Source: a virus
IMG/VR virus record: IMGVR_UViG_3300044632_001319
Strand: one strand, 5' to 3'
Length of the DNA stretch: 64,000 nt
Positions 36,737 to 64,000 of this stretch are shown in pieces; the first letter of the stretch is position 1; each line of letters starts with the position of its first letter. The translations under genes were made by a program, and so were the position numbers. Below the pieces are notes generated by a model. That model did not search any database. It had not been told where the DNA came from and was given only the letters and a program-made list of their open reading frames with translations.

Positions 36737-36763
36737 AAAAACCCCCCGAAAGGGGGGTTTTTT
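36737..36763. terminator. Bidirectional rho-independent terminator at the strand switch
   Basis: AAAAACCCCCC GAAA GGGGGGTTTTTT between convergent genes. Confidence 0.9.
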
Positions 36764-38195
36764 ATTTACCTTGTCTCATTTGTTTTCCAAAATTTCTAGC
36801 AAAGTTTCTTCTCCACGCCGCATCTTTTTGCATTTGTGCTTGGAATGATTTTCCAAATCTAGTTCTACGATTTGCATCACTTTGCATTTGTGTTTGGAAT
36901 GCTTTAGCATCTTCACCACGCTTAATGGTTTCTTGTCCCGCTTGTAGTGCAAATTTTTCCCCTGCTGACAAATCAAGTGGTTGGTTTGCAACAATAACTG
37001 GTTTTGGTTTTGTTACCTCTGCCTTTGGAGTTGTTTGTGTTGCGAAGTTAGAAGATGCCATTGTCTCTGCTGTTGTTTTTGCGCCTAACTCTGTTGAGAT
37101 CTTTCTAAGTTCTCTTTGTAGATTTGCTTTGACTGGCGATTCTTCTTGCTTTGGTGCTTTATCTTCTTCTTGCCATTTTTGCCAAACTCTTTCTGCTTCT
37201 CTTCTTCTCTGAGCACCAACAGCACCACCAGGACTTCTTGCGTCAGCTCCGTATGCTGCAAAGTCTGCACTAGTTTCTTTGCGAACGGGGACTATAGTAT
37301 TAGAATATCCACCACCGCTTCTTCTTGGTCTTGTTTGTTTTGGTTGTTGTCTATTTCGGTTTGGGATTTCTAGATCACTAGCAGATACAGTTTTAGTTGC
37401 TCCAGATTCATTAGGCACATTGATTTGTGGAGAATCTGGTTTAATTAATTCATTATATGCATATACTCCACCTGCTACACCCGCTGCAACTCCAGCAGTT
37501 CTAACTACTGGTTTTACTCCAGGTATATTTTTAACAAAATCATATCCTTGTTTTATTCTTTGTCCTATACCTTCGTTCAGTCTTTGTTTATAAAATTCTA
37601 CTTCTTCTCTCATTGGATTTTGACCTCTTAGTTTTCTTTTTTCTGCCCATTTTCTATCTAGTTCTGCTATTTTATCTTGAGCACGTTTGACATTATCTGA
37701 TCGAATTTGATTGAATCCTTGTTCACCATATCTTGCAACTAATTTTTGTTTTGCTTCATCTGCCATTCTTTGTCTCATTTTTCTACCAAGGTCAAGTGAC
37801 ATTTGTGATTGAGCGGTTAAAGCATCACCTTTATCTCCCATAATGTCTTGCGGAGTAAGAAGAGATTGACTTGTTCTTGGACCACGAAGATCTTGTATTT
37901 CCATGCGTTCTGGTTCTCCTGGTTTTCTTCCAAGTTCACCTTGTCGCACTGTTATAAATCTACGATTTTGTACATATTCTCTTGCTTCGGGTGGCAGATT
38001 TTCCCATTTTCTCTCTTCGAATGGTTTTTTTAATTCTTCTTGACCAACAGCAACATCTCTTGCAAGAGAGGAGAATTGTTGTGCGCTTCTTTCTACTTCT
38101 CTTATTTTTTCTGCTTTTCTTTCTTCTTGCTTCTTTTTCTCTTGATCAAAAATATTAAGAATATCAAGACCTGCTCTGATCCCTTGTAGTGGCAT
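36762..38195 (-). CDS. Hypothetical late protein with internal RLNE site and a Gly/Ala hydrophobic segment
   Basis: 477-aa ORF behind a late promoter; TAGVAAGVAGGVYAY segment. Confidence 0.6.
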   Translation of the reverse strand: MPLQGIRAGLDILNIFDQEKKKQEERKAEKIREVERSAQQFSSLARDVAVGQEELKKPFEERKWENLPPEAREYVQNRRFITVRQGELGRKPGEPERMEIQDLRGPRTSQSLLTPQDIMGDKGDALTAQSQMSLDLGRKMRQRMADEAKQKLVARYGEQGFNQIRSDNVKRAQDKIAELDRKWAEKRKLRGQNPMREEVEFYKQRLNEGIGQRIKQGYDFVKNIPGVKPVVRTAGVAAGVAGGVYAYNELIKPDSPQINVPNESGATKTVSASDLEIPNRNRQQPKQTRPRRSGGGYSNTIVPVRKETSADFAAYGADARSPGGAVGAQRRREAERVWQKWQEEDKAPKQEESPVKANLQRELRKISTELGAKTTAETMASSNFATQTTPKAEVTKPKPVIVANQPLDLSAGEKFALQAGQETIKRGEDAKAFQTQMQSDANRRTRFGKSFQAQMQKDAAWRRNFARNFGKQMRQGK

Positions 38196-38210
38196 AAAAT
38201 TCTCCTAATG

Positions 38211-38218
38211 TATTTATA
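38211..38218 (-). promoter_or_regulatory. T4-type late promoter (TATAAATA on - strand)
   Basis: TATTTATA on +, then AGGAG RBS on - before the ORF start at 38195. Confidence 0.7.
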
Positions 38219-38220
38219 AA

Positions 38221-38248: not shown

Positions 38249-39070
38249 TCAGTATCCTCTCATTGGAGGCATTGGGGGTCTTCCCATGCCACCCATAGGT
38301 GGTCTTCTTCTCTGGGGCATAGGAGGTCTTCCCATGCCACCCATTTGTGGTCCACCCATTTGTGGTCCACCCATTGGAGGTCTTCCCATACCACCCATAG
38401 GAGGCATACCACCACCCATTGGTCCACCCATTCCACCACCCATTGGTCCACCCATTCCACCACCCATTGGTCCACCCATTGGGGGCATACCACCACCCAT
38501 CATATCCATATCCTCTTCGCCTTCCATTGGAGGCATACCACCACCCATTGGTCCACCCATTCCACCACCCATTGGTCCACCTTGTTGTTGACCTTGTTGT
38601 TGCATCATTGCACTTTGTGCAAGTGCTTGATTTCTTGCATCGTCTGCGGGATCAGAGAGATCACCAAACATTGTTGGTGTTGATTTTTTCTTTTGTTGGT
38701 TTGGATTAAATCTGAAGTTTTGACCCATTGCTGCTGGGGGTTCTTGTTGTTGTGGGGGCATTCCACCACCCATTCCACCACCCATTGGAGGCATTCCACC
38801 ACCCATTCCACCGCCCATTGGAGGCATTTCTCCCATACCACCCATCATACCCATTTCGTCTTGACCCATTTCTCCACCCATTGGAGGCATTGGTGGTTGA
38901 CCCATCATACCCATTTGGGATCTTCTTCTTTGTGGCATCTGTGGTCTTCTACCACCCATTTGTGGTCCACCCATGCCGCCCATGGGAGGCATACCGCCAC
39001 CCATACCAAAGTTCTCATTCATTAATACTTTGGTAATTGAATCGTAAATTCTTTTATCTGAGTCTTTCAT
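38249..39070 (-). CDS. Met/Gly/Pro-rich low-complexity protein
   Basis: Repeats MGG, MPPMGG, GPMGGGM after N-terminal ...VLMNE; RBS AAGGA. Confidence 0.75.
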   Translation of the reverse strand: MKDSDKRIYDSITKVLMNENFGMGGGMPPMGGMGGPQMGGRRPQMPQRRRSQMGMMGQPPMPPMGGEMGQDEMGMMGGMGEMPPMGGGMGGGMPPMGGGMGGGMPPQQQEPPAAMGQNFRFNPNQQKKKSTPTMFGDLSDPADDARNQALAQSAMMQQQGQQQGGPMGGGMGGPMGGGMPPMEGEEDMDMMGGGMPPMGGPMGGGMGGPMGGGMGGPMGGGMPPMGGMGRPPMGGPQMGGPQMGGMGRPPMPQRRRPPMGGMGRPPMPPMRGY

Positions 39071-39088: not shown

Positions 39089-39919
39089 TTAAAAATCTTG
39101 TCTACCCATGCGATATCCGCCTGGTTTAATATCTGGACTGATCATTTGTGCTGTAGATCTGGGTCTTACGGGTCTTACTCTATCGATTCCTCGTCTTTTT
39201 AGTTCAAGGTTTCTTTGCTTTATTGCTTCAAGTCTTTGAATTTGTTTTTGTAATTCACTTTCTGCTTGTGGTACTACACTATCAACTTTTGCGGATGCGC
39301 CAGGTGCTGCAAACTGACCAACTTGTGGTTTTCTTATATCACTTGTACTAAATTCCAATGGAATATCATACTTATTTTCACCGTGTGCTTTTGCGCGATC
39401 TACTGCAAGATTTTCTGCATTTTTTAATCTTCTTAGTCTTTCGGTTTCTGATATGCCAAAATCAACATTAAATGGATCTTTTGTCTTGCTTGTATCTACA
39501 TTTTTAGATCCGACTGCTGGACCCAGTGGTACTTTTGGTGTTTCAGCAGATGGCATTGCTCCTGCTGGTGCTTTTGGTTCATCTGGTACGTCCTCATACC
39601 TAGAAACCGTGACTAGTGGTTGACCACTAACATCAACACCGTAAAGATCACCGCCTGGTCCAGTTCGTGGAACACCAGCAATCATTCCAGCAACCTTTAA
39701 AGCACCAGTTTCTGGATCTCTCTCTGCTTTTTCTGCTGCTGCTTGGGTTTGTCTGAGTAGACTTTGTTGTTCTGGTGACAATTTATCAATATCAGCCATG
39801 CGATAAGTTGTAGAACCAACGTATTTTCTCTTTTGCTCATTTAGAAATACATTATTAGTTGCTTCTGAAAGCGATCTTAATAATTTATTGTTGTAGTAAT
39901 TTGAATTGAATTTGTACAT
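39089..39919 (-). CDS. Hypothetical late protein
   Basis: N-terminal ...RSLSE...FLNE; late promoter at 39941-48 on -; RBS GGAG. Confidence 0.65.
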   Translation of the reverse strand: MYKFNSNYYNNKLLRSLSEATNNVFLNEQKRKYVGSTTYRMADIDKLSPEQQSLLRQTQAAAEKAERDPETGALKVAGMIAGVPRTGPGGDLYGVDVSGQPLVTVSRYEDVPDEPKAPAGAMPSAETPKVPLGPAVGSKNVDTSKTKDPFNVDFGISETERLRRLKNAENLAVDRAKAHGENKYDIPLEFSTSDIRKPQVGQFAAPGASAKVDSVVPQAESELQKQIQRLEAIKQRNLELKRRGIDRVRPVRPRSTAQMISPDIKPGGYRMGRQDF

Positions 39920-40503: not shown

Positions 40504-40697
40504 TCTTTTCTATACCCCTGTAGAACAATATAATGGGTGGGTACATCTTCTGGGTTTTTTTCTGCTCTTTTCGTTGCTGCATCAAATTCCTTTTTAGTCA
40601 AAAGGAGTTCATACCTATACCCAGCAGTATCGACATGAGTGCAGAAATAATATTCTTCTGCTTCTTTATTTGTTTTTCTTTTATGGTTTTTTGCCAT
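40482..40697 (-). CDS. Small hypothetical protein
   Basis: Coupled to the upstream gene (TAATG); LLLT..E...A.KRAEKNPED. Confidence 0.55.
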   Translation of the reverse strand: MAKNHKRKTNKEAEEYYFCTHVDTAGYRYELLLTKKEFDAATKRAEKNPEDVPTHYIVLQGYRKDQGCKDS

Positions 40698-42070
40698 TAG
40701 TATGATTCCCTACCAACATTCATTTTACTGAGAATGCTCATCGCTAATCTTCTGCGTCTGGGATTTGAATTCACTGGTTGCTTACCATATAGTGGTTCAA
40801 ACCCTCCCATGTTAGCAGCGGTGTAATTTGCTTGTGCTGCTCTAGAAACAGCAACCTCTGATGAATCTGGTTTTCCAGATGGGTTAACACCTATTCCTGC
40901 AATTGCACCACCACCAGCTGCCATCTCTTCTTTGATTTCTTTTGCTGCCTTTTTGAATTTTTCTTTCTGTGCAACATTTGCAGCAGTGAATGATTGTGGT
41001 ATAAATTTAACTTGACCATGACCTGGTAATTCAGAAACAAATCCTTCACCATTTGAATGACCACCTTCGGGAGTCATTGGTAGACTTTTATTTCTGTGTA
41101 GAATGTCTACGATGATGTTTCTTGCAGCATCAGCATGATCGTGTGCTTTGAGTAGATTATGAAGTGCTGCTGGGTCTTTATCTACGAATTCTAGATGTCC
41201 CATGATTCTTTGTTTATCTGCGCTGCTCTTTGCCTTATCTGCTTTGGATTTTAACCAATCCTTTAGAGAACCAATAGATCTTTCTGTCACTTCTCCTCTT
41301 TGAACTGCATTGGTGTATTGCTTGAAGATGAGATGTCTATGACCTGTTTTGTTTGTTGGATCGACGTGTTCTGCTATAGATTTTGCAATTTGTTTTACTT
41401 TTTTATCATTCAGAAGAGTATTTGCATTTGATATATGCGTATTGAGTTTTTGCATCTCTTCTGGAGTTGTATCGAATGACTGATTGTTGAGGGAGAGATG
41501 TGGAAAGTGTGCCTCTTTCGACTCAAGGAATGTCACATCTGGATTTGATCCAGTTTTCTCACCAGTATCAGTATTCAGTTGTGTGTGTACCGCAACTGCA
41601 TACTTCTTTGATTTCGCTGGTTTCATGTATGATATTAGATTTCCCTTGAATGTCGTTGGTGATGATTCTAGAGCAATATCTGCTTGATAACCAGTATTTG
41701 ATCCAATTGAAGGGTGTTTTGCTGACTTCAATCCAACCATGAATGGTTGTGTAAGATATGGTTTTTCTTTTGTCTCTTGTTCTATTTCTTGTTCCGAATA
41801 GAGATGTGGAGATCCTTCACCCTTATATTTCACGAATGGTCTTCCACCATTTCTACCAAATACAATTGATACACTTCCATCTACCTTATATGATAAATTG
41901 TGTCCAGGTTGTGGTCTTCCTGCTAGAAAGTTAGCAGTTGCTTTCAAATGCTCTATTGCTGCATTTGGGTTACCAGTGTATAGTTTTTCACCATGATGCT
42001 CAAGGTGCTTGATTACCTGTATAGATTCGTTTAAATTTATTCTACTGAAAAGTTCTGTTACTGTAATCAT
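40697..42070 (-). CDS. Conserved T4-like-phage protein with ligase-like KxDG motif (DUF6267-like)
   Basis: KHLEH, YKVDGS.SIVFG, YQAD, GEGFV, VKF....F..AN. Confidence 0.6.
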   Translation of the reverse strand: MITVTELFSRINLNESIQVIKHLEHHGEKLYTGNPNAAIEHLKATANFLAGRPQPGHNLSYKVDGSVSIVFGRNGGRPFVKYKGEGSPHLYSEQEIEQETKEKPYLTQPFMVGLKSAKHPSIGSNTGYQADIALESSPTTFKGNLISYMKPAKSKKYAVAVHTQLNTDTGEKTGSNPDVTFLESKEAHFPHLSLNNQSFDTTPEEMQKLNTHISNANTLLNDKKVKQIAKSIAEHVDPTNKTGHRHLIFKQYTNAVQRGEVTERSIGSLKDWLKSKADKAKSSADKQRIMGHLEFVDKDPAALHNLLKAHDHADAARNIIVDILHRNKSLPMTPEGGHSNGEGFVSELPGHGQVKFIPQSFTAANVAQKEKFKKAAKEIKEEMAAGGGAIAGIGVNPSGKPDSSEVAVSRAAQANYTAANMGGFEPLYGKQPVNSNPRRRRLAMSILSKMNVGRESY

Positions 42071-42460: not shown

Positions 42461-43108
42461 TTATCTTACTCTCTTTAACTGTCTATCTTCTCTTTTACGA
42501 CTTTTAATCGTTTCTGACTCTTTTGCACCTGTTATATCAGTACCAATATGTGCTTGACGAATTTCTTCCTGTTCACTTATTGGTGAAACCATTTCCTTAA
42601 TAGTTTTGATTCTCTTGTTTCTCTTAATCTTCTTCATCATTGACTCAGTTACCTCTCCCTTTGGAGTCATTACTGCATCAATTTTATATCCATCACTTGT
42701 TTTGTTGACCTTAAAGTTTAAATTGAACTTTGGTAGATCATTACCAGTATAGAAACCAGTTGAAAGGTCGTGAGTTGGAGTTGTTCCAAACACTTGACCT
42801 CTAGACACCTCAACGTTGAAGTCTGATTCCTTTGCGGCATCTGGAGCAACATCAAAATCATAGTTTAAGTGATTTAAACGAACCTTTAGTTGGTGTAAAT
42901 CGTGTTGTGGATTTAAAGATGTTCTTCTGAAGAAATGCTTAAGGAATGCATTTAATCTGTGAAGACCCTCTGGATCTAGTGGGTTTAGGCGATTTTGCCC
43001 TTGTACCTTTTCAGCATCGAATGGTGAAAATACACCAGGATATTCCTGCGATTGACTATTTCCGATGCTAGTTGGGTAAGATGAACTGTATTCGTTTAGA
43101 TTTTTCAT
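42461..43108 (-). CDS. Hypothetical protein (MKNLNE N-terminus)
   Basis: RBS AGGAG; 215 aa. Confidence 0.65.
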   Translation of the reverse strand: MKNLNEYSSSYPTSIGNSQSQEYPGVFSPFDAEKVQGQNRLNPLDPEGLHRLNAFLKHFFRRTSLNPQHDLHQLKVRLNHLNYDFDVAPDAAKESDFNVEVSRGQVFGTTPTHDLSTGFYTGNDLPKFNLNFKVNKTSDGYKIDAVMTPKGEVTESMMKKIKRNKRIKTIKEMVSPISEQEEIRQAHIGTDITGAKESETIKSRKREDRQLKRVR

Positions 43109-43125: not shown

Positions 43126-44334
43126 TTATTTCTTTTTCTTTTTGCCTTTTCCAGACCTCTCGCCTTTTTCTTTCTTACGATTTCTTAAGACGATAAATGT
43201 TGCATATCTGAACTTCGCATTCTTCTCAGAATCGTTGCCTTTTATTGCTTTAATATTCTTTAGTTTCTTGGCAAGACGATCTCTTTTTGCAAGTTCTGCA
43301 TCAGTCATGGAACCAGCATTTTTAATGTTTACAACTTCCTCTACTATGCTCATTCTCTCATGACGATCGATGGATTCATTAGTTGATCTCCATCCACCAC
43401 CACGCTTCTTGTACCATTTTGATGCCCATGCATTTGCATACGCTGAAGGATATACATCAAATTTCTTACGAGCAAGTGCCTTTGCTCTTGACCACAATTT
43501 AGAATTTGTTGGTTTATTTGCTTCACTTATTAAAGATTCATTTACTGGTACACAGTTTGGGACCATTTTACCATTTTTATTCTTCATGCCCTCTTGCTTA
43601 TATCCTTCCCAGCAAGAACCTCTCTTTTCCATCATTACATTTGTTTGTGGTTCATATGACTCATTGGTCCCACAACGACAACCCCAAACACGAAGTGCTG
43701 CATTAATCTTGCTCTTTGGATCTCTAGCAGTCTTGGAACTAGTTCTGCGTTTCTTCATTCCACACATGCGAGCACAGAATGACTTTCTACGCTTTTGTGT
43801 TTTGCTAGAAAGTTTATTGAACCCACCCTTGCGCTTTGCTTCATCTTTGGTTTCGATACCAGCATGAATTCCTTGTCTTCTTGCTTCTGCGCGAGAAAGA
43901 CCACCCTCTGGGTGATTCTTACCCTTCTTGAATCCTTTATAGGGTTTTTTGCTTTTTTTCGCTTCACTTAATTGCATAAGTGTGTCTGAATATTTTTCCA
44001 TGATGTTTCGACTGATGAGTATTTGTTTGATGTATTCTTTCATTTCATTCATTTTTTTCTTCCCTGGTCTATATTTATTCTTAGAACCGTCCCATGTCTT
44101 TCCAGATTTGTGTGAACTAAACTGTTTACCTTCTCTGTGTGCTTTTTGCTTAAGTCTCACTGCTTTTTTCTTTTGTTCTGGAGACATTTCACTCCAGGTT
44201 TGTGGACTTTTATCAGATACTCTTTTAGATGGTCTACATTTAACTCTGCCTCGACCTTTATAGTCTCCACATTTAGATCCATCTTGTGCGGTCCATTTCT
44301 CCTTGAACCATCGTCGTAAATCTTCATTAAGCAT
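43126..44334 (-). CDS. Basic multi-module protein (putative head-packaged polyprotein)
   Basis: Modules LRRWFKEKW, RRKSFCARM, CWEGYKQ...VPNCVP and KFDVYPSAYAN, separated by xNE/IxE sites. Confidence 0.7.
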   Translation of the reverse strand: MLNEDLRRWFKEKWTAQDGSKCGDYKGRGRVKCRPSKRVSDKSPQTWSEMSPEQKKKAVRLKQKAHREGKQFSSHKSGKTWDGSKNKYRPGKKKMNEMKEYIKQILISRNIMEKYSDTLMQLSEAKKSKKPYKGFKKGKNHPEGGLSRAEARRQGIHAGIETKDEAKRKGGFNKLSSKTQKRRKSFCARMCGMKKRRTSSKTARDPKSKINAALRVWGCRCGTNESYEPQTNVMMEKRGSCWEGYKQEGMKNKNGKMVPNCVPVNESLISEANKPTNSKLWSRAKALARKKFDVYPSAYANAWASKWYKKRGGGWRSTNESIDRHERMSIVEEVVNIKNAGSMTDAELAKRDRLAKKLKNIKAIKGNDSEKNAKFRYATFIVLRNRKKEKGERSGKGKKKKK

Positions 44335-47300
44335 TGTCTGCCCTATTCTCAGATTTTGGTCTGACTCTTAGATTATGCTTTCCATTGTTTTGTGGATTTC
44401 CATCCTTGTGATCTACATCTTTACCATCACCCTTGCGAACCTTTCCCAATTTCATCATGAGTCTACGAGCAAGGACTCTCTTACTTCTATTTGCTCTTTG
44501 CTTTGGTTTTGAATGGTAATTATCATATTCCTTACGATAATTTCTCTTCGACTCTGATATTGGTGATTGCAGTGTACCATCTTGGGCATAGTCATATGGT
44601 TCTTCCACGGGTATTCTAAATTCTTTACCATTCACGAAAACAATATTGGTTATTCCACTGCTGCTCTCTGCGTATTCGTTGAAATCTAGTAGAATTGGTG
44701 GAACTGTTACGTCAAATGCGTCTTCGAAAAACTGTTGCATTTTGATTGCATCGTCACCGATATAATCAACTGCATCTTTCATATACTCAATTGCCTCTGC
44801 TGGTGTTGTTGGATCCTTTGGAACTACTTGTTCTAGCATGGATTGATTTTCTATTAACACTTTCAATAATCTAGAACCAGATAATCTGTTTAAATTTTCT
44901 GATAAGAATACACGAAGAACCGATCTGAATGCATAAGGTCTAAAATCCTCAAGCATCGTTATCTTTTCTCCTGCTTTCTTCTTTGCTTGTTCGAACTCTT
45001 TCCACTTCTTACCAAGATCACCACTTTCAACTGCACTTGACTTGATTGTTGCTTGGAATTTTATCTTACCACCATCAGAAATCTTTCTAGCATAGTCCAG
45101 TGAAATTGGTGTAACCTTTGCATCAGTTCCATCTCTATTTGCACTAAAGACATGGGTGGCAATACCAATACCTGGTTCAAACTTTCCAGCACCAGTTAGT
45201 GAAGCGTATACAAAGTATGCTCTTAAATCTGAGTTCGTATTCATCAGATCGTTGAATTTATCTGTTACTTTTCTGTGTAGGTTTTCTCTTCTCGTTACCT
45301 CTTCGTCTTCTCCTTCTTTAGCACCACCTGGGAGATAAAGACTAGTTGGTCCTATTTTTGTTCTTGGGTTTCCTCTCATCTCATTCTCAATAATATCAAT
45401 CATATCATTAAGTGATTTGACTTCTTTATTAGATAACTTATTTTCTAGTTGATCTCTGGACCATTTTAGATTTGTTAAAACTTCTGATGGTCCACCAGAT
45501 CCAAGTTGTGTGTCTTTGCCTATTTTTTGTGAAAGACCCGCTACCATTTGTTTAGATGCTGCATCAACTAGTGCAAGATCTGGTTTTGGTGTGGTATCTG
45601 TCATTTTATTATCTTTGGCAAGATCAGTTAGTTTTACTTCTTTCTTCAATCTTCCAGTATGTTTGACATAGCACCCAGGAAATTGTTTCATTAGAACTTG
45701 TGCTGCACGAACGCATGATGGTGAAAATGATTCATGTTGATTTGACATCACCGACTTAAGTGTTTCTCCATCAATGAATTCATTCTTTACCATCTGCTCT
45801 GGTGTGACCCCAAGAGCAAGGTTTACTTGATATGCAATACCCGCTTCCATAGAACCAGCATCATGCGATGTGCTAAAGGTATCTCTGTTTGTTGCTTTCT
45901 TCAGAGAGGGAATCATTGGTGCTGGCATTGCTGCTGCGGTGGGTTCACTTTTTTTGCTCTTGGAAGACTTTTGTTTTGGTTCACTCACTTGTTTTTTACC
46001 TTTTTTATCGCTTTTACCATCACCCATTCCTTCTTTGTAACCAAAGAGTCTTTCAGATGTAACAGTATTTGTAAATGCTTTATTGGTGAGGTATTTTTGT
46101 ATATTTGAAACTGATGCATCTTCTGCTTTTACCAGCACACTGTGCACATTTGGGTTGTATGATTCCTTGTCGATGATTTCAATATCACCACTCTTGGATT
46201 TGACAACCATGACAGAACCTCTTGTATTGCCTACTGCTCTTTTATTTTCGTCTCTATTTCTTTGAGATCTTTTGTTTACTCTATTTTTTGCTCTACGACG
46301 AACTTTACGCTCGGTGTCAAGTGGTTCTCTATTTGGTTTCTTTCTTACCATCTTCTCTATTAGGAAATTCGAAATGAAGTTATCTACTACTGGGTCGAAA
46401 GATGAATTTAGATTACGCAATCTCTTTGATTCTCCTTGAATTACAGTTGGCATGATTCTCTTGATCATAGAATCAATCATTGGTTTTCTTTTATTGATCA
46501 TGCGATCAATTGATGCTCTCTGTGAATATGATAATTTTTTCCAATTGCCTTTGAATACTTTTCTTCTCAGTTGTGACTTAATTTCATTCTTTGCTCGAAC
46601 TTTGAGTTGTGGTATATTTTTTCTTCTGCGAGATCTGATCTTTCGAATCATTGCTCTTCGTTTTGCAGTTCGTCTTGCCACCTTTGCTAATTTCATTCTG
46701 GTGGTAGCACTAACTTCTTCCTTAAGTTTTTTCTTCGACTTTTTCTTTGCTTCCTTTTCTGCTCTTACTGAATCTATACCACTCTTGACATCACTCATCA
46801 TTTCTTTTGCATGTGCTGCTTTGACATGTGATGGAAGCATTGATTTGAATGTGTCGAAATCTCCCTCGTCTGCTGCTTTTCTCATTTTGGTCCCAGAAAC
46901 ACTTTTCATATCGGTTGGATCGGGATCAGAGTCAGGATCTCTTTCACCAGCAGATACTACATCGAAATCATCTGGATGGATGTTTGATAAGTCTAAAGCA
47001 TCTGTCTTTTTTCCAAAGTATTGCTTAAACTTCTTGTATCCCTCAACTCTGTCAGCACCAGCGATTAGGGTTATTTTGCGATACCCCTTTGCGTGTACAT
47101 CCTGTAGTACCTGAGCTATGCCCTTGATGTCCTTGTCAACTACTATTTTATCTGTGTTGAGTACCCTTTCCATGTGGGTTCTTTTACTCTCAGTCGATAA
47201 TGGATTATCCTCAGATCCCTCACTATGACTTCCGTAAATAATATGATCACCACCAACATTCTTTGCCATATCTGCTGCTTTTTGTGCAACCATATGGTGA

Positions 47301-47356
47301 GCAATTGTTGGTGGTTGGAATCTACCGTATACTATAACTGCATGTTCTCTAGGCAT
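44327..47356 (-). CDS. Cytidylyltransferase-like NTase + putative nuclease-like region + C-terminal HNH domain
   Basis: YGRFQPPTIAH (HxGH-like), NPLS, AGADRV, VVSAGERDPD, SGTKMR; central TPKPDL...LSQK; C-terminal DVDHKDGNPQNNGKHNLRV. Confidence 0.75.
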   Translation of the reverse strand: MPREHAVIVYGRFQPPTIAHHMVAQKAADMAKNVGGDHIIYGSHSEGSEDNPLSTESKRTHMERVLNTDKIVVDKDIKGIAQVLQDVHAKGYRKITLIAGADRVEGYKKFKQYFGKKTDALDLSNIHPDDFDVVSAGERDPDSDPDPTDMKSVSGTKMRKAADEGDFDTFKSMLPSHVKAAHAKEMMSDVKSGIDSVRAEKEAKKKSKKKLKEEVSATTRMKLAKVARRTAKRRAMIRKIRSRRRKNIPQLKVRAKNEIKSQLRRKVFKGNWKKLSYSQRASIDRMINKRKPMIDSMIKRIMPTVIQGESKRLRNLNSSFDPVVDNFISNFLIEKMVRKKPNREPLDTERKVRRRAKNRVNKRSQRNRDENKRAVGNTRGSVMVVKSKSGDIEIIDKESYNPNVHSVLVKAEDASVSNIQKYLTNKAFTNTVTSERLFGYKEGMGDGKSDKKGKKQVSEPKQKSSKSKKSEPTAAAMPAPMIPSLKKATNRDTFSTSHDAGSMEAGIAYQVNLALGVTPEQMVKNEFIDGETLKSVMSNQHESFSPSCVRAAQVLMKQFPGCYVKHTGRLKKEVKLTDLAKDNKMTDTTPKPDLALVDAASKQMVAGLSQKIGKDTQLGSGGPSEVLTNLKWSRDQLENKLSNKEVKSLNDMIDIIENEMRGNPRTKIGPTSLYLPGGAKEGEDEEVTRRENLHRKVTDKFNDLMNTNSDLRAYFVYASLTGAGKFEPGIGIATHVFSANRDGTDAKVTPISLDYARKISDGGKIKFQATIKSSAVESGDLGKKWKEFEQAKKKAGEKITMLEDFRPYAFRSVLRVFLSENLNRLSGSRLLKVLIENQSMLEQVVPKDPTTPAEAIEYMKDAVDYIGDDAIKMQQFFEDAFDVTVPPILLDFNEYAESSSGITNIVFVNGKEFRIPVEEPYDYAQDGTLQSPISESKRNYRKEYDNYHSKPKQRANRSKRVLARRLMMKLGKVRKGDGKDVDHKDGNPQNNGKHNLRVRPKSENRADNA

Positions 47357-47361
47357 ACATT

Positions 47362-47369
47362 TATTTATA
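47362..47369 (-). promoter_or_regulatory. T4-type late promoter (- strand)
   Basis: TATTTATA on +, a few nt from the ATG at 47356. Confidence 0.65.
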
Positions 47370-47373
47370 CAAT

Positions 47374-47398
47374 AAAAAACCCCCCGAGGAGGGGGGTT
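47374..47398 (-). terminator. Rho-independent terminator
   Basis: AAAAAACCCCCC GAGGA GGGGGGTT. Confidence 0.8.
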
Positions 47399-49961: not shown

Positions 49962-50519
49962 TCATTTCTCCTTATCTTTATTTAGTTTCTTTTTAATATG
50001 AGAAATGACACGCTTCATCTTCGGGTCAATATTCTTTTTAGCAGTAAACTTATCTTTTGACTTGCTTGTTAGATATGGGGAGTTTAATCTGCGAACAACA
50101 TCATCTGCATATCGAATGCCTTTTCCAAATGTAATTACATCTGGATCGTGTGATTTCACATGATGTTTGACAATTGGTATCACCATTCTATGTAAATCAA
50201 TTGGTTCGAGTTTTTCTTCTCCCATGTTCTCGTAGTTTACATGACTTTTTGTTTCAACACCAGACATATCTGGAGAATACTTGTGAACTATTTCAACAAC
50301 ACCACTGATCTTGCCATTCTTAAAATGATATGCGTGTATTCCAGAATTTGCATTTCCTTTTTCATCAGGAATAAAATTATAACGAATGGGATATTCAGCA
50401 TTCTTTAGATAACCACGATGGATTACATCCTTCTCATTAGAAGTATTAGAGATGAAATCCTCTGGATTATTTCTCTTCTTTATCGATTCATTCAATGAGT
50501 TGAATATATCACGAATCAT
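49962..50519 (-). CDS. Hypothetical protein (MIRDIFNSLNE N-terminus)
   Basis: In operon; LNE site at residue 11. Confidence 0.6.
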   Translation of the reverse strand: MIRDIFNSLNESIKKRNNPEDFISNTSNEKDVIHRGYLKNAEYPIRYNFIPDEKGNANSGIHAYHFKNGKISGVVEIVHKYSPDMSGVETKSHVNYENMGEEKLEPIDLHRMVIPIVKHHVKSHDPDVITFGKGIRYADDVVRRLNSPYLTSKSKDKFTAKKNIDPKMKRVISHIKKKLNKDKEK

Positions 50520-50521
50520 TT

Positions 50522-50908
50522 TTATTGTCCGCGTCTTGTTCTAACTTGAGTTCCTGGTCTGAGTTTGTTTGGATCTTTAATTCCTTTATTGATTTCAAGG
50601 AATTCTCTTTCTGAAAGACCATGTTTCATTGCAATGCTTCTTACAGAATCATTCTCACCGACTTTGTAGAGTGGACTTGGTAATTGCTTTTGATGAGGTT
50701 GTCTAGTAGGCACATTTACTACTTCAGTGGGTTTTACAGAAGAATTTGTCTGTTGACCCCCAACTGAAATTTCATTTCCTTTCATCACTATTACTTTTGA
50801 TTTTGGTTTTTCAAGTACAGGTTTATCTTCTGGACTTGATGTTTTTTTCTTTTGTAAAAAGGATGGTAGATTATTTTGTTCTTGGATGTATGCTTTTAGA
50901 CTTTTCAT
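50522..50908 (-). CDS. LysM-domain protein
   Basis: YKVGENDSVRSIAMKHGLS...EIN..IKDPNKLRPGTQV; N-terminus MKSLKAYIQE. Confidence 0.8.
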   Translation of the reverse strand: MKSLKAYIQEQNNLPSFLQKKKTSSPEDKPVLEKPKSKVIVMKGNEISVGGQQTNSSVKPTEVVNVPTRQPHQKQLPSPLYKVGENDSVRSIAMKHGLSEREFLEINKGIKDPNKLRPGTQVRTRRGQ

Positions 50909-50915: not shown

Positions 50916-51746
50916 TCACTTTACCTTTACTTTTTGACCTATTGAGATTTTATCTGGATTTGCTTTGAGGTGTGGATTCTTTGCCAAAATATCTTCTAAC
51001 GATGTATTATATCGTTTTGCTATCTTGGATAAACTGTCACCTTTCGCAACAACGTGATGCGATCCAGGTGATGTTGGTGCTGATTGTTGAATTGGTTTGG
51101 GTTGTACTTGTTGTGGTTGTGCAGTTTGTGTTGGTTGTGTAGATCCTAAACCACCACTCCACATTTTACCTTCTTCTGCTCTTCTTTTCACAAGTCCAGG
51201 AAGAACAACTTTCTTCCCAGTGTTTCTGTCTACGCCTTTGTTGTATAAATTTAGACTAGTTGGAACATTATCCCAGTTTTTATTTAATAGATCTTGACTA
51301 ATCGAATAGAATCTTTCATTTGATTTTGCTTTTGGTCTGTAGAATCCTGGACCATAATTATATGCAAAACTCATGAGTGCTGCTTGTTGACCAGAGTGCA
51401 TCTCATCCCATCCTGGTATCTTTTCAAGATGTGGTGTCATATTATTGAAATAATGACGAACATGTTGTTCTGCTTCTTGTTTTGTTACTGTGTCACCAAT
51501 TTGTATTTTCTTTCCAGTGTGTGGATAATTGTGGGTGATACCGTATCCAATGACCGTTGGGTTTCCCTCTGCATCCTTATCTGGTTCTGCAACGGGTCTA
51601 AATCCTTCTTTTTGTTTGATAAAGTCAACCATTCTCTCCACCGCTTCTGGTTTTGGTGGAGCAGCACTTGCTGCACTAGCAATACCAAGTGCAGCAAGTC
51701 CAGTCATGAGTCTTCTTTCTTCCAGATATGTTTTAAATGTTTTCAT
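50916..51746 (-). CDS. GH24 lysozyme with C-terminal LysM
   Basis: IKQKEGFR...D..G.PTVIGYG.T, ALMSFAYNYG, LPGLVKRRAEE; HVVAKGDSLSKIAKRY LysM; N-terminus MKTFKTYLEE. Confidence 0.9.
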   Translation of the reverse strand: MKTFKTYLEERRLMTGLAALGIASAASAAPPKPEAVERMVDFIKQKEGFRPVAEPDKDAEGNPTVIGYGITHNYPHTGKKIQIGDTVTKQEAEQHVRHYFNNMTPHLEKIPGWDEMHSGQQAALMSFAYNYGPGFYRPKAKSNERFYSISQDLLNKNWDNVPTSLNLYNKGVDRNTGKKVVLPGLVKRRAEEGKMWSGGLGSTQPTQTAQPQQVQPKPIQQSAPTSPGSHHVVAKGDSLSKIAKRYNTSLEDILAKNPHLKANPDKISIGQKVKVK

Positions 51747-52305
51747 CATTGTCTCTTTCAAAATCTTCTACTTTTTTATTCTCATTATCCTTAAATTTTT
51801 TCATAGCAGCATCAACTGAAACAAGTGGCACATGAATAATCAATTTTTTATTGGCAAGATCATTGTGAATTTTGTGTATTGGTACAGTGCTTCCTAATCT
51901 GCTGGTGATCAAATCTTGTAATTCAAGTTGTGAACTTGGTTGTTTTCTTGGATTTTCTCCCGTCCATTTATGTATTTTAGTTGCATCCTCATGTTTCATA
52001 TCATGTTTGTCTAGATCGCTGTGATATAGGGATGCATCAAGATGTATTGCTATGACATCATCTGATGGTTGGTGTACCTTTGTTATTGGCAGAGACACTG
52101 TTTTCTTTGGTTCAAATTGTGATTTTGTGCCATAAGACCAATCTAGACTAGAAAATAAGTGATACCTAGCAAATCGTGTAGCGGGTTGATCCAATTCTCT
52201 TTTACTTGAAACATCTCTTTCGGCAGATCCAAAGGTGGAATGTATATAATCATTCCATTCCTGACCTTGCTTTATTTCCAATAATATGGTTTTGAAATTC
52301 TTCAT
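51733..52305 (-). CDS. Hypothetical protein (MKNFKTILLE N-terminus)
   Basis: In operon; internal-protein-like N-terminus. Confidence 0.6.
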   Translation of the reverse strand: MKNFKTILLEIKQGQEWNDYIHSTFGSAERDVSSKRELDQPATRFARYHLFSSLDWSYGTKSQFEPKKTVSLPITKVHQPSDDVIAIHLDASLYHSDLDKHDMKHEDATKIHKWTGENPRKQPSSQLELQDLITSRLGSTVPIHKIHNDLANKKLIIHVPLVSVDAAMKKFKDNENKKVEDFERDNDENI

Positions 52306-52470
52306 TCAGTAATTCCTGTGTCTTTTAAACCACTCAATCTGCTTTAGTCTTTTCAGTGCTGCCTGTTTGCTACCATATTTGCCAAGTTTTTTACCTTTTT
52401 TGCTAAGTATGGTATACTCATCACCGTCTTTTCTAATTGTTTCAGATAAGAGATGCTTAAATTTCTTCAT
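52306..52470 (-). CDS. Small basic protein (MKKFKHLLSE N-terminus)
   Basis: IRK.G.EY.ILSKKGKKLG.Y.SK..A.KRL.QIEWFK; ATG at 52470. Confidence 0.6.
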   Translation of the reverse strand: MKKFKHLLSETIRKDGDEYTILSKKGKKLGKYGSKQAALKRLKQIEWFKRHRNY

Positions 52471-52489
52471 ACATTTATGTATAAAAATT

Positions 52490-52768: not shown

Positions 52769-52969
52769 ATGAACAATAAAAATACAACCATAGCAGGTAT
52801 CGGAGCAATATTAATAGCAGTGGGTGCAGTTTTAAGCGCAATGTTTGATGGCGATCCAACAACCAACGCAGATTTTGCAGCAGCAATCGCAGCAGTAATT
52901 GCTGGTGTTGGTCTTATCCTGGCAAAGGACGCAGCAAATAAGGACGGTGGTAACACCCCAGCAAAATGA
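52769..52969 (+). CDS. Putative holin (two TM helices)
   Basis: TTIAGIGAILIAVGAVL and AAAIAAVIAGVGLILAKD; RBS AAGGAG. Confidence 0.6.
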   Translation: MNNKNTTIAGIGAILIAVGAVLSAMFDGDPTTNADFAAAIAAVIAGVGLILAKDAANKDGGNTPAK

Positions 52970-52979
52970 TTGAGGTAAA

Positions 52980-53234
52980 ATGCTTGAAAAACTTGTCGCA
53001 CAATTCGCACTCGCACTCTTCAACTGGTTGGATAAAAGAATCCAGTTGGGTTCGACTGCGGTTGATGCTGATTTGGATCGCGATAAGTTGCACCGTGCTG
53101 GTCGTAGGATCGATGAGTGGTTGCGGGAACAGGACCGTATTCATTCCCGAGGACTCACCCATTCGTCTGGGACCAAAAGCGAAGGTGAGAGTATACACAC
53201 TCCAAAAGGGGGAGTGGACTCTAAGCAACAATGA
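52980..53234 (+). CDS. Putative i-spanin-like protein
   Basis: RBS GAGG, hydrophobic N-terminus, overlapped by a lipoprotein ORF in another frame. Confidence 0.4.
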   Translation: MLEKLVAQFALALFNWLDKRIQLGSTAVDADLDRDKLHRAGRRIDEWLREQDRIHSRGLTHSSGTKSEGESIHTPKGGVDSKQQ

Positions 53235-53310
53235 GGTTCATTTACCAGAAGGATGGTATTGCGTCCCCCCATCCTTTGTAAAAGAAAACGATCCATTACC
53301 AAACAGATGA
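53065..53310 (+). CDS. Putative lipoprotein (o-spanin-like)
   Basis: Hydrophobic LIWIAISCTVLVVG + lipobox-like MSGC, Pro-rich mature part; start uncertain (52966-53065). Confidence 0.5.
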   Translation: MLIWIAISCTVLVVGSMSGCGNRTVFIPEDSPIRLGPKAKVRVYTLQKGEWTLSNNEVHLPEGWYCVPPSFVKENDPLPNR

Positions 53311-53332
53311 TGAAAAAATTGAGAGAGGGAGG

Positions 53333-53358: not shown

Positions 53359-53376
53359 CATTTAATAAATAATAGT

Positions 53377-54039
53377 ATGAAAAATTTTAAATTTTATCTA
53401 AAAGAAGATCTAGTTGATGTCAAATATGGTAAATTGACACAAGAGGATGAGCAGAAGATAGACGAATCAGATAAAATTATTTCTCAATTCAATAAGAATG
53501 GCATTTTACAGAAGTACAAAAACATGAAAATGCCATCTCCGAACGAGACTGCTGAAGAGATTAAAGAACTCAAACAAATAATGGCAAATGCAACAGACGA
53601 TGATCTGTTCTTCGCAATCAGTGCAGAAGTCGATGAGAATAAGATGTATTTTGATTTTGCAAAGTCACACGGATTGCATCTTCCACCCGATTTCATAAGA
53701 AATATATTCGATCAAACAGATCCAATACTTTTCTATCTTAAGAAATATTATAACAGAGCAAGACCAGAACAATTCGCAGCAGCGAATAATATTCCATTTC
53801 AGGTAGAGATAGCGAACAATGCATTACATCCAGCATGTCCATCTGGTCATGCTCTTGATTCTTTTTTAATGGATCATTTTCTAAGCAAAATGATTAAAAA
53901 TAAAAGAAAAGAAATAAGTGATTTTTGCGAAAAGATGAGAATGAGTAGAGTGCATGTTGGATTACACTACCTATCAGACAATGAAATGTCTAGAATTCTA
54001 GCAAAAGATTTAATAGAAAGCAAACTAATAGAGATTTAA
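53377..54039 (+). CDS. PAP2/haloperoxidase-superfamily phosphatase
   Basis: K..Y.RARP (C1), PSGH (C2), SR...GLHY.SD (C3); N-terminus MKNFKFYLKE. Confidence 0.85.
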   Translation: MKNFKFYLKEDLVDVKYGKLTQEDEQKIDESDKIISQFNKNGILQKYKNMKMPSPNETAEEIKELKQIMANATDDDLFFAISAEVDENKMYFDFAKSHGLHLPPDFIRNIFDQTDPILFYLKKYYNRARPEQFAAANNIPFQVEIANNALHPACPSGHALDSFLMDHFLSKMIKNKRKEISDFCEKMRMSRVHVGLHYLSDNEMSRILAKDLIESKLIEI

Positions 54040-54040
54040 A

Positions 54041-54784
54041 ATGTATAACTTTTTAGATTACATAACAGAAGTATTTGATTTTTCTAGAGAGAATATGGAA
54101 CTGAGTCCAGAAACCAATCTCATTCATTACCATAAGAATGGAATAGAAACAGTATTTGGTCATGACGATATCATGAGAAGAATTCCATTTAAGGAATTTG
54201 TTTTTCATACTCCACTCAGAGATATGCCAAAAGACAAAAGCAATCTTTGGGTTCATGTCATGCACTATCCAGGTGGATATGCCACACAAGGATTAAAGAA
54301 ACCACATCTTCAAGTTCACTTTGATGTAAGTCATGTTACAGATCATGATTACTTAGATACTATGAGAGAACAAAAGAATGCAGAACGCAAGACTGAAGGA
54401 TACGATGATCCTGGTGTAATATATGCAAACACATTTGCAAAACAAAAAGGATTATCATTTAGTCAAGCAGCAGGAGGTAATGCATATAGTGGACTTAGAC
54501 GAGATGCATCACCTGGATTGTCTTTTGCTTTTAGAAAAATTGCACCACATATCGTAAGATCTGCATGGCATGTGTCTAAATTCTATCCAAAAATGCCAAT
54601 AGCATTTAGTGCTGGATCGGATGTTCCTGGTCATGAGAAAAGAAAAATGGCAATGTACAATACAATTGCAGATTCTCTGAAGGATGCTGGATTAGTACAC
54701 GATGATTCCCAATATGTGTATAATCCATATTCTAGTAAAGGTCAAATGCCAATGTTTCATGTGATTCAACCTATTCACAAATAG
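54041..54784 (+). CDS. Hypothetical protein (MYNFLDYITE N-terminus)
   Basis: 247-aa ORF; internal-protein-like N-terminus. Confidence 0.6.
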   Translation: MYNFLDYITEVFDFSRENMELSPETNLIHYHKNGIETVFGHDDIMRRIPFKEFVFHTPLRDMPKDKSNLWVHVMHYPGGYATQGLKKPHLQVHFDVSHVTDHDYLDTMREQKNAERKTEGYDDPGVIYANTFAKQKGLSFSQAAGGNAYSGLRRDASPGLSFAFRKIAPHIVRSAWHVSKFYPKMPIAFSAGSDVPGHEKRKMAMYNTIADSLKDAGLVHDDSQYVYNPYSSKGQMPMFHVIQPIHK

Positions 54785-57386: not shown

Positions 57387-57393
57387 AATAAGT

Positions 57394-57421
57394 AATATAC
57401 CACAAATCCATCACTTGTCAA
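57394..57421 (-). promoter_or_regulatory. sigma70-type promoter TTGACA-N16-TATATT (near-leaderless)
   Basis: On the - strand: TTGACA agtgatggatttgTGg TATATT, ATG 7 nt downstream. Confidence 0.75.
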
Positions 57422-57521
57422 GCATAAAATGCCGATTTTTGTGGTGTGATAACCAGGGTCCGATAAATACTATCAACCGCGTCCGATAACAACAAAATGG
57501 TACGATTATTGTTCAAAGATA

Positions 57522-57549
57522 TTGACTCGTAGGCATTTTGTGGTATATT
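57522..57549 (+). promoter_or_regulatory. sigma70-type promoter TTGACT-N16-TATATT (near-leaderless)
   Basis: TTGACT cgtaggcattttgTGg TATATT, ATG 9 nt downstream, no SD. Confidence 0.7.
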
Positions 57550-57558
57550 ATATGAACT

Positions 57559-62671: not shown

Positions 62672-62689
62672 TATATCCTCTGATATTTG

Positions 62690-62701
62690 TATTTATAAAT
62701 A
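62690..62701. promoter_or_regulatory. Palindromic double late promoter TATTTATAAATA
   Basis: Contains TATAAATA on both strands, between divergent genes. Confidence 0.75.
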
Positions 62702-62733
62702 GAAGTATGAATCTATAAATTAAAGGAGATTCC

Positions 62734-64000
62734 ATGGACTACAGTCGTATTGCAAAGGAAAATTTAAATTTTTTAAACAACGGTCAAAATAAAACTCCAA
62801 AGCGCGAGTTAAATGAGATGGCAGAACCATTATGGTGGAGAGCAATTAAAAGAATGTTTGGTCCTCGATTTACTAGAAGACAAAAATTCCCAGAGTTCAT
62901 GGAACGATATGCTAACCCACCAGGCGGATGGCCAAGAAGAATTATCAGAATAAACAGAAGTGGTAGTCACCCTTGGGGAAATAATGATAATATTCGTCGT
63001 TGGTTGGAGCAACTTGATGGAAGTACAGGAATGGGTGGAACCAGAGTAAGACAGTTACTCATTAATGATGAAGGTGCATTTATTGTTTTAGGTGAGGATG
63101 GTAGATATTACTACCTGCATCCAGACAGCGCCGTGGGCCCCATGAGATTGCCTCAAGACTGGGATCCATATAGAGATTCTATACCCGAATCATTTGGTCA
63201 TCAGAATTGGGCAGATGAAGGATACAGAAGTCCCATTGACAATGATCCATTCTTTGGAATAATTCCAATTTTAGGACTGCCAGGTCTTTTAGATCCAGGC
63301 GCGAATCCAGAAGATGAATTCGTTGCTGAACCACCTCAGTCAATACCTCCACTTTTAGTAAGACCAGAAGAAAATTGGTCACCTCCTATGAGATCTATGA
63401 AATATGAATCATATCAACTAAATGAATCAGTAGAACCTAGATGGTGGAGAGTGCTGATGAGGATGCTTTATCCCCAACAAGGACACAGGTGGACTTTTCG
63501 CGAATTCATGGAAAGATATGCAAATCCGCCAGGCGCGAGTCAAAGAATTGTCATAAGACTTAATGCCAAGCCAGGATATTCGGTTAGTTCTGATGCAGAT
63601 AAATTCTATAGAAAATGGTTAAGTCAATATAGAAATCATCCTCGTTTAGATGGTTCTAGTGCTCGCGAAATAATTGTTAATGATGAAGGTGCTTGGGTTA
63701 TTCTTGCAGAAAATGGTAGATATTATTACATGCACCCAGAAGATGGATTTATGAGACTCCCAGAAGGTTGGAATCCAAATACAGATTCAATTCCTGATGT
63801 ATATGGCCATGAAAACTGGGCAGATCCAGGATACAGAAGTCCGATCGACAATATTGAATTTGGTGTTGCTCCAATTTTAGGACTGCCAGGTCTTTTAGAT
63901 CCAGGCGCGAATCCAGAAGATGAATTCGTTGCTGAACCACCTCAGTCAATACCTCCACTTTTAGTAAGACCAGAAGAAAATTGGTCACCTCCTATGAGAT
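62734..64000 (+). CDS. Tandem-domain protein (202-aa units), runs off the window end
   Basis: RBS AAGGAG, ATG 62734, frame open to 64000 (MDYSRIAKENLNF...LNEMAEPLWWR...LNESVEPRWWR...); absent from the ORF track because it has no stop. Confidence 0.85.
   Translation, partial: MDYSRIAKENLNFLNNGQNKTPKRELNEMAEPLWWRAIKRMFGPRFTRRQKFPEFMERYANPPGGWPRRIIRINRSGSHPWGNNDNIRRWLEQLDGSTGMGGTRVRQLLINDEGAFIVLGEDGRYYYLHPDSAVGPMRLPQDWDPYRDSIPESFGHQNWADEGYRSPIDNDPFFGIIPILGLPGLLDPGANPEDEFVAEPPQSIPPLLVRPEENWSPPMRSMKYESYQLNESVEPRWWRVLMRMLYPQQGHRWTFREFMERYANPPGASQRIVIRLNAKPGYSVSSDADKFYRKWLSQYRNHPRLDGSSAREIIVNDEGAWVILAENGRYYYMHPEDGFMRLPEGWNPNTDSIPDVYGHENWADPGYRSPIDNIEFGVAPILGLPGLLDPGANPEDEFVAEPPQSIPPLLVRPEENWSPPMR
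63264..64000 (+). repeat. Exact direct repeat of at least 131 bp (63264-63394 = 63870-64000), period 606 bp
   Basis: TCCAATTTTAGGACTGCC...CCTCCTATGAGAT is identical in both copies. Confidence 0.92.

Follow-up and report, generated by a model that had tools for sequence, protein, structure and literature searches.

Unrelated late proteins of a freshwater T4-superfamily myophage share a leader resembling the T4 capsid targeting sequence and are candidate head-packaged cargo

The viral stretch IMGVR_UViG_3300044632_001319 (64,000 nucleotides; hereafter the window, meaning the whole stretch analyzed) comes from a freshwater T4-superfamily myophage, a lake-water relative of T4. Six clustered genes in the window encode proteins that begin with the same 10-residue leader ending in Glu and are otherwise unrelated, and this leader corresponds to the capsid targeting sequence carried by T4 internal proteins IPII and IPIII. 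By analogy with T4, the tagged late proteins are probably cargo that is packaged into the phage head and trimmed there by the head protease. Work on the capsid targeting sequence has been confined almost entirely to T4 and its closest relatives, and to few small proteins. If this address and the head protease also control a diverse enzyme cargo in the abundant uncultured phages of aquatic habitats, injected proteins, likely counter-defence or repair tools of the first minutes of infection, would become predictable from genome sequence, and protein delivery in T4-type vectors could make use of the tags and cut sites.

The shared N-terminal leader and its specificity

An initial annotation of the window listed six 10-residue N-termini ending in Glu, and all six were recovered at open reading frames (ORFs) starting at 50908, 51746, 52305 and 52470 on the minus strand and at 53377 and 54041 on the plus strand (Table 1). 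Their shared start is M-[KY]-x-[FL]-x-x-[YIL]-[IL]-x-E. A search of all six frames of the 64 kb with this motif as a regular expression retrieved six matches only, each opening an ORF of 54 to 276 codons and all located within 50.5–54.8 kb. The six genes are arranged in two divergent operons, one with four genes on the minus strand (52470 down to 50522) and one with two genes on the plus strand (53377–54784). Behind the leader, the bodies of the six proteins carry differing Pfam domains or none. The lysozyme, LysM, phosphatase and ligase-like domains proposed for the region were confirmed as Phage_lysozyme plus LysM, LysM, PAP2 and DUF6267, respectively, and family searches of the window proteins located no toxin-associated domain, which had also been proposed. 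A search of IMG/VR for relatives of the 190-aa tagged protein gave none.

The motif is specific to gene starts. The window together with nine related contigs amounts to 441 kb, in which the motif starting with Met has 36 matches and the reversed motif has none. With any other first residue it has 60 matches in the same 441 kb, so that about one match with Met1 would be expected by chance. In this clade 41 non-identical tagged proteins are known, and BLASTP (E 1e-3) sorts them into 24 families that are unrelated to each other. Positions 1, 2, 4, 5, 7, 8 and 10 of their leaders are nearly fixed and positions 3, 6 and 9 are variable. Position 4 is Phe in 39 of the 41 proteins, position 7 is Tyr, Ile, Phe or Leu, and Ile or Leu at position 8 and Glu10 are present in all 41, the expression that defined this set already allowing only F/L/Y at position 4 and F/Y/I/L/H at position 7 and requiring Glu10. 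The motif is retained in orthologues that have diverged to 33–55% identity. Codon usage differs beneath the constant peptide pattern, which points to selection on the protein and not on the mRNA.

Correspondence with the T4 capsid targeting sequence

The likeness to the T4 capsid targeting sequence that the initial annotation had drawn held in every test run. When the window motif was turned into a degenerate DNA pattern of 30 nt, the complete T4 genome matched it at ipII, ipIII and gene 61.1 only (control, 0), and translation of the T4 matches gives the known IPII and IPIII leader. IPII and IPIII (and IPI) are described as carrying a 10-residue capsid targeting sequence that the prohead protease gp21 cleaves (Mullaney and Black, 1996, as cited in PMC9026906 and PMC3012670). 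In the IPIII leader, residues 4 and 7 act in targeting and residues 8 and 10 in processing, and Asp at position 10 stops cutting but not loading (PMC9026906). The conserved positions 4, 7, 8 and 10 of the window motif coincide with these mapped residues. In each of the six window proteins, position 4 is occupied by Phe or Leu, position 7 by Tyr, Ile or Leu, position 8 by Ile or Leu and position 10 by Glu. T4 propeptides are 10–19 residues long, and the T4 internal proteins are basic (PMC9026906).

The system in the window shares with T4 a 10-residue leader with the same key positions, the presence of identical or nearly identical leaders on unrelated, hypervariable and often basic proteins, and the clustering of the genes beside a lysozyme gene, in a T4-superfamily phage with an S77 protease in a relative. 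It differs from T4 in a preference for Phe4 and Lys5 and in the frequent presence of Asn, Ser or Thr as the P2 residue. The cargo would also include recognizable enzymes (PAP2 phosphatase and lysozyme; Nudix, HAD and ligase-like proteins in relatives), whereas that of T4 consists only of small inhibitor-like proteins. The arrays comprise 6–11 genes per locus, one member joins the tag to a putative signal peptide, and the system is known here from sequence alone. Full-text literature searches showed discussion of the capsid targeting sequence only for T4, close relatives and engineering uses, and brought up no account of aquatic T4-like phages with arrays of tagged genes or with junction motifs.

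Tagged genes and head machinery in related genomes

Many related contigs are present in IMG/VR, mostly as fragments. The 117.8-kb contig G001, whose gp41 is 79% identical to that of the window, has 11 tagged genes, ten of them consecutive, including a Nudix hydrolase gene, and several of its leaders are identical at the DNA level. No homologue of any window gene occurs among the tagged genes of G001, which indicates that the tagged set is hypervariable, like the IP loci of T-even phages. As G001 also lacks homologues of every gene from 31.7–64 kb, it is unusable for orthologue checks of the cargo, and these were made with eight shorter contigs.

G001 encodes a portal, a prohead-core-like protein, an S77 head protease, a scaffold and a major capsid protein in the T4 order. 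When its capsid protein is aligned to T4 gp23, L-F-E lies a few residues from the T4 cut site, a weakly informative match. Two further features were seen in G001. A 307-aa gene at 65328–66251 (L092:5328-6251), located between the head protease and the scaffold, has a 10-residue start ending in LSE and no family match; its product may be a head-internal protein encoded inside the head module. The gene at 7935–8894 has a second in-frame tag at residue 247.

Distribution of the motif in IMG/VR and link to the S77 protease

An exact scan of IMG/VR found the motif in at least 120 stretches and the reversed pattern in 74, two counts that are not usable as an enrichment figure. The stretches listed contain 131 matches; 122 of these lead into an ORF of 50 codons or more, and 112 stand at the ORF start. 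The motif is associated with the S77 protease: among listed contigs longer than 40 kb, S77 was found in 9 of 16 with a motif match versus 4 of 19 for the reversed-pattern control (p = 0.036), and among those of at least 58 kb in 9 of 10 versus 3 of 10 (p = 0.01). Most S77 phages have one to four strict matches, which places the lineage of the window at the high end of tag number.

Among the matches listed, the recurring tagged families include DUF6267 ligase-like proteins, HAD/PNK-like phosphatases and cytidylyltransferases; an HD phosphohydrolase and a P-loop kinase were each seen tagged once. The combination of tagged phosphatase, ligase-like protein and kinase across IMG/VR hints at an RNA-repair-type kit. 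The most recurrent family among the matches listed consists of proteins of ~190–210 aa (~36 loci; L163:868-1464; L136, L137, L154, L166, L191 and others). Its members always carry the canonical tag, followed by a K-x-Y-x-F-K-[IV]-K-[IV]-A-G-E segment, and weakly match phrog_14802, 'virion structural protein'. A distant homologue in phage PA5oct, EST35_0202, is annotated as a structural protein by electrospray ionization tandem mass spectrometry (ESI-MS/MS) and has a degenerate leader at its start, which gives the head-cargo reading one experimental point of support, from another phage. PA5oct has an S77 protease, yet the leader is not in use there and this one distant family link was all that was found. 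The family has no member in the window or in G001.

Two arrangements among the IMG/VR matches stand apart. A 104-kb contig with an S77 protease has four consecutive small genes with near-identical tags (L172:2357-3739), one of them encoding a HAD/PNK-like phosphatase (phrog_415). In L147, L187, L206, L226, L237 and L238, the 10-residue motif lies in frame ~160–220 codons inside a conserved longer ORF. It may mark a second start within the ORF or a unit made of a cleavage site plus a tag.

Late promoters

Exact TATAAATA boxes occur ten times in the window versus 4.2 expected, and all of them lie just upstream of genes in the right orientation. Such promoters had been reported ahead of several of the listed genes, and exact boxes do precede five genes of the region (boxes at 38211, 39941, 47362, 62690 and 62694), none of which is among the six with the strict motif. 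The minus-strand and plus-strand tagged operons are each preceded by a box matching TATAAATA at 7 of 8 positions (Table 1), and no early-type promoter was found for either. The gene of a 1009-aa NadR-like protein has the same layout of terminator, box and ATG in all eight genomes, with an exact box in the window.

At 47356–47395, 52470–52512 and 53331–53379, a terminator hairpin is followed by a T-run, a TATAAATA-type box, 5–6 nt and the ATG, with no Shine-Dalgarno sequence, and this layout is kept in orthologues. If transcription starts at the usual T4 distance, the late mRNAs of these three units would be leaderless or nearly so.

Longer leaders and cleavage motifs in neighbouring late proteins

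A second, looser claim of the initial annotation, that many other proteins of the region have an early (L/I/M)xE, is statistically real. [LI]xE occurs in the first 30 residues in 21 of 32 genes in 36.7–64 kb versus 11 of 36 in 1–36.7 kb, the background in internal 30-residue windows being 17–18%; without the six strict genes the proportion is 15/26 (p = 3e-6). [LIMF]-N-E near the N-terminus is found in 7/32 versus 0/36 genes of the same two regions, with an internal background of ~2% (p = 9e-6). The syntenic block of relatives shows the same enrichment.

Two of these proteins have longer leaders that end in [LI]xE. In the 185-aa basic protein, an 11-residue leader ends in [LI]-[NH]-E and is followed by Ser, Glu11 and Ser12 being invariant in six orthologues. 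The DUF6267 protein has a 15-residue leader ending in LNE. Its orthologues have leaders of 10–16 aa that differ in sequence and all end in [LIV]xE directly before the conserved core, and DUF6267 proteins of other phages carry the canonical 10-residue tag. In an alignment of 20 DUF6267 homologues, K62 and D64 are invariant and G65 is near-invariant (KxDG); E342-G343-V345 and the also invariant K355 are candidate motifs IV and V. The predicted structure has a pLDDT (predicted local distance difference test) of 80, with the leader helix detached and of low confidence. It matches only RNA and DNA ligases, with RNA ligases including those of Naegleria and T4 at the top (Z 8–9.2; Foldseek E values weak, 0.02–0.3). 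In the model, the protein combines the nucleotidyltransferase fold with the motif I lysine, by which it would belong to the ATP-dependent RNA/DNA ligase superfamily.

Conserved [LI]xE motifs also occur inside two multi-domain proteins of the late block. In the 402-aa protein, the number and order of modules differ among orthologues, and each alignable module start lies directly after [LIMV]xE, with P3 and P2 variable. The five [LI]xE sites of the 1009-aa NadR-like protein are kept in 7–8 of 8 orthologues and adjoin indel-rich linkers; Glu213 stands right after the cytidylyltransferase domain and Glu935 just before the HNH domain. Counting alignment columns with [LIM]xE in ≥80% of orthologues and at least three different triplets, the late block has 10 such conserved but variable columns versus 1, 1 and 3 for three control motifs, and the replication region 5 versus 7, 5 and 9 (Fisher p = 0.0035). 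As [LI]xE is kept exactly at module junctions, the two proteins would be cut into modules inside the head. These junction motifs are new here, and they suggest that large multi-module phage proteins can be head-processed polyproteins. The minus-strand late block (~36.7–52.7 kb) is also markedly basic, with a median isoelectric point (pI) of 9.5 and a pI >9 in 80% of its proteins versus 8% in 1–36.7 kb (p = 9e-8).

Processing at many sites has precedents in giant phages. In phiKZ, 201phi2-1 and SPN3US, proteases related to gp21 cleave many of the head and ejection proteins after Glu (PMC9026906, PMC5694885). The arrangement proposed here resembles theirs in having many putative head-internal substrates cut after Glu, multiple sites per protein and propeptides that would be removed during head maturation. 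The giant-phage proteases favour a small P3 residue (S/A/G-x-E), whereas the motif here is of the T4 type, [LI]xE; the window phage also has T4-like size and gene order, and the proposed cuts would part whole modules of multi-domain proteins.

Phages and conjugative elements also encode polyvalent proteins, which are believed to enter the recipient cell together with the DNA (Iyer et al., 2017, as cited in PMC7824862). The 402-aa and 1009-aa proteins resemble them in build, as each strings together enzyme domains and small, mostly basic modules that have been shuffled. Unlike in polyvalent proteins, the modules here are parted by a conserved head-protease motif, which implies that they would be released as separate pieces. 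To our knowledge, such release is not part of the published description of polyvalent proteins.

The region was earlier taken to encode well over a dozen cargo proteins between 36762 and 64000. That number is not established for the window, where about ten candidates are defensible. The span is too wide, as it also holds genes for a RuvC-like resolvase, a PD-(D/E)XK exonuclease and CobT- and CobS-like proteins.

Proposed role and alternative explanations

Packaging, cleavage and injection are proposed by analogy with T4 IPII and IPIII. The leader would dock the protein onto the scaffolding core of the prohead, and a gp21-type S77 protease would cut after Glu10. The mature, mostly basic protein would stay in the head with the DNA and enter the next host alongside it. 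The late block on the minus strand (~36.7–52.7 kb) would feed the same protease with the two proteins that have longer [LI]xE leaders and the two multi-domain proteins. The injected payload suggested by the initial annotation is supported in part, by a real T4-type tag and protease motif, late boxes, hypervariable and unrelated cargo, the S77 association and a gp21-type protease in a relative, while its packaging, cleavage and injection stay at the level of analogy.

A wider version, which we regard as tentative and rather doubtful, would make the head protease a general maturation system for a large injected enzyme kit. This kit would comprise tagged single proteins, polyproteins of 400–1000 residues cut at [LI]xE (cytidylyltransferase, HNH, small basic modules), an RNA-ligase-like enzyme and phosphatases, and removal of the tag from the lysozyme would expose its Sec signal, giving it two addresses in succession. 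On this version, sequence data by themselves would suffice to list what thousands of uncultured T4-like phages inject.

Several observations weigh against head-packaged cargo as the explanation. In PAP2 homologues, positions 4 and 7 are kept and Glu10 is missing in 3–4 of 14. The six strict genes have only 7-of-8 late boxes in the window. The 402-aa and 1009-aa proteins have no recognizable 10-residue tag, and DUF6267 proteins of two relatives have no leader. MLNE and MKNLNE, earlier listed as leaders, are too short for a T4-type tag and below any known T4 propeptide. Within the 64-kb window there are no protease, scaffold or capsid genes, these being found only in the relative G001, and the cultured phages Melnitz, HTVC008M and S-RSM4 have few or no strict matches. 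The N-terminal architecture of the lysozyme and its gene neighbours point the same way.

Directly behind its leader, the lysozyme has an Ala/Gly-rich hydrophobic stretch of ~17 residues (residues 12–28, mean hydropathy up to 1.6), followed by a conserved AxA|APPKPE site and then the GH24 domain. By hydropathy and site reading, this is a conserved segment resembling a Sec-type signal peptide or a signal-arrest-release (SAR) segment, and tag and hydrophobic stretch occur in tandem in 55 of ~57 homologues, down to 40% identity. The gene has two notable neighbours: one encodes a holin-like protein of 66 aa that contains two hydrophobic helices, the other a protein of 114 aa in which a lipobox-like SGC occurs. 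Neither protein has a family match. The central cluster may accordingly be a lysis cassette, with the lysozyme a secreted or SAR endolysin exported via host Sec, its neighbours holin- and spanin-like, and the leader an extension of the N-terminal region (n-region) of the signal; we take this as a serious possibility that falls short of probable. Signal-peptide and SAR endolysins such as P1 Lyz and phage 21 R are well known, and like them the window protein is a lysozyme with a weakly hydrophobic Ala/Gly-rich N-terminal segment encoded near holin-like genes; unlike them, it has a conserved 10-residue T4-type leader ahead of that segment. In G004 and G022, an unrelated 218- or 222-aa protein with the same leader and hydrophobic stretch takes the place of the lysozyme. 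The window lysozyme is the only PF00959 lysozyme seen in the contigs of the clade, no other being found in G001, Melnitz, HTVC008M or S-RSM4, and a late promoter fits an endolysin as well as head cargo.

This explanation is a competitor only where the lysozyme, and perhaps the LysM protein, is concerned; the remaining tagged genes lie outside it, and the five tagged proteins other than the lysozyme have no hydrophobic segment. Moreover, n-regions are normally not conserved in sequence, whereas here 10 residues persist in homologues with as little as 40% identity and are the same as the tag found on proteins of cytoplasmic type. The leader is also acidic at positions 9–10, which is unusual directly before the hydrophobic region of a signal, and the holin and spanin assignments are drawn from sequence features. 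A secreted or SAR endolysin is the simplest reading of the lysozyme, yet it does not account for a tag that is so strictly conserved. A protein bound for export would be in competition with its own loading into the prohead, and because a signal peptide is also present, the lysozyme is the least certain tagged member. It had been put forward as the leading example of cargo; the tag is present, but with its conserved signal peptide and lysis-like neighbours the protein may simply be the endolysin.

For all the tagged genes, the leader might be an N-terminal module other than a capsid address, for example an amphipathic helix for other sorting, partner binding, regulated proteolysis or translation start, on proteins that act only in the producing cell. 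Such a role would suit the tagged families of IMG/VR, which are ordinary enzymes (ligase-like, HAD/PNK-like, cytidylyltransferase, HD phosphohydrolase, kinase) whose T4 counterparts are cytoplasmic and unpackaged, as well as the motif in T4 gene 61.1, which lies in a replication-gene region, and the dispensability of Glu10 in some PAP2 homologues. We consider it unlikely. Selection acts on the leader at the protein level, the conserved positions are those mapped in T4 for targeting and processing, and the motif associates with phages that encode the S77 protease. The tagged operons have late boxes and no early-type promoter, and a late ligase or phosphatase makes most sense if made for the next infection. 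In addition, [LI]xE is kept at the module junctions of neighbouring proteins.

Chance resemblance, or a remnant of recent tandem duplication, was rejected as the source of the shared start and is highly improbable: the genes are clustered and several G001 leaders are identical in DNA, but the mature parts belong to 24 unrelated families, the reversed motif has no match in 441 kb, the motif persists in strongly diverged orthologues, and it recurs across IMG/VR, mostly at ORF starts.

Genome context and further features of the window

The nearest cultured phages by gp41 (58–60% identity) are Methylophilales phage Melnitz, Pelagibacter phage HTVC008M and cyanomyophages, all of them Kyanoviridae. 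A megablast search with 48–56 kb of the window against GenBank phages gave no match. The first 36 kb hold tail-fibre and sugar-metabolism genes, together with UvsX, gp41 helicase, gp61 primase, a ThyX-like gene and ribonucleotide reductase. The gp43-type DNA polymerase gene is split into two parts (24547–26025 and 28130–29275) that lie ~2.1 kb apart, and between them are a 179-aa gene, small ORFs and three tRNA genes (Gln-UUG, Leu-UAA, Leu-CAA). G001 shares the same split.

Table 1. Leader-bearing genes, late-promoter-like boxes and neighbouring features of the window
Feature	Position	Strand	Remarks
DUF6267 RNA-ligase-like nucleotidyltransferase (putative)	40697..42070	-	15-residue leader ending LNE
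215-aa basic protein starting MKNLNE	42461..43108	-	Six-residue start in 4/8 orthologues, weak evidence for a leader
402-aa modular basic protein (DUF5872, DUF6321, further modules)	43126..44334	-	[LIM]xE at each module junction: Glu4, 97, 124, 236, 271, 332
1009-aa protein, NadR-like cytidylyltransferase to HNH	44327..47356	-	Exact late promoter; [LI]xE at Glu213, 334, 820, 836, 935
185-aa conserved basic protein	49962..50519	-	11-residue leader ending [LI]-[NH]-E, then S; Glu11 and Ser12 invariant in six orthologues
128-aa protein	50522..50908	-	10-residue leader, low-complexity linker, LysM domain
GH24 lysozyme with LysM	50916..51746	-	10-residue leader; Phage_lysozyme and LysM domain matches
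190-aa protein, no recognized fold	51733..52305	-	10-residue leader; G014 orthologue with a leader variant
54-aa very basic protein (pI 10.3)	52306..52470	-	10-residue leader, kept in orthologues; first gene of the minus-strand tagged operon
Late-promoter-like box, 7/8 of TATAAATA	52476..52483	-	5 nt before ATG, just after terminator hairpin 52490-52512; exact in G011 and G013
Holin-like 66-aa protein (two hydrophobic helices) and 114-aa protein (hydrophobic stretch, lipobox-like SGC)	52769..53310	+	Sequence features; candidate lysis pair
Late-promoter-like box, 7/8 of TATAAATA	53364..53371	+	5 nt before ATG, after hairpin ~53331-53354; exact in G005
220-aa soluble PAP2-family phosphatase	53377..54039	+	10-residue leader; first gene of the plus-strand tagged operon
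247-aa protein	54041..54784	+	Leader variant with Tyr at position 2; G014 homologue has another leader variant
CobT- and CobS-like genes	54975-58755		Sigma-70-type promoters, no late box

No Pfam, PHROG or PDB-sequence match was found for the 190-, 247- and 185-aa proteins, for three late proteins at 36.7–39.9 kb or for the proteins at 59–64 kb. Of the 273-, 276-, 311- and 421-aa proteins, the one of 311 aa alone was matched in the fetched contigs, by weak matches that left its N-terminus uncovered. The 273-aa late protein (38249–39070, minus strand) consists nearly entirely of Met/Gly/Pro repeats of the GGMPPMGG type behind a normal N-terminal segment of 19 residues ending in LMNE. Family searches gave no match for it, and the fetched contigs contain no orthologue. 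The proteins encoded at 36762–38195, 39089–39919 and 48442–49377 on the minus strand are basic and largely of low complexity, each with one Gly/Ala-rich hydrophobic segment and no family match. Two of them lie behind exact late promoters, and all three could be head-internal or ejection proteins.

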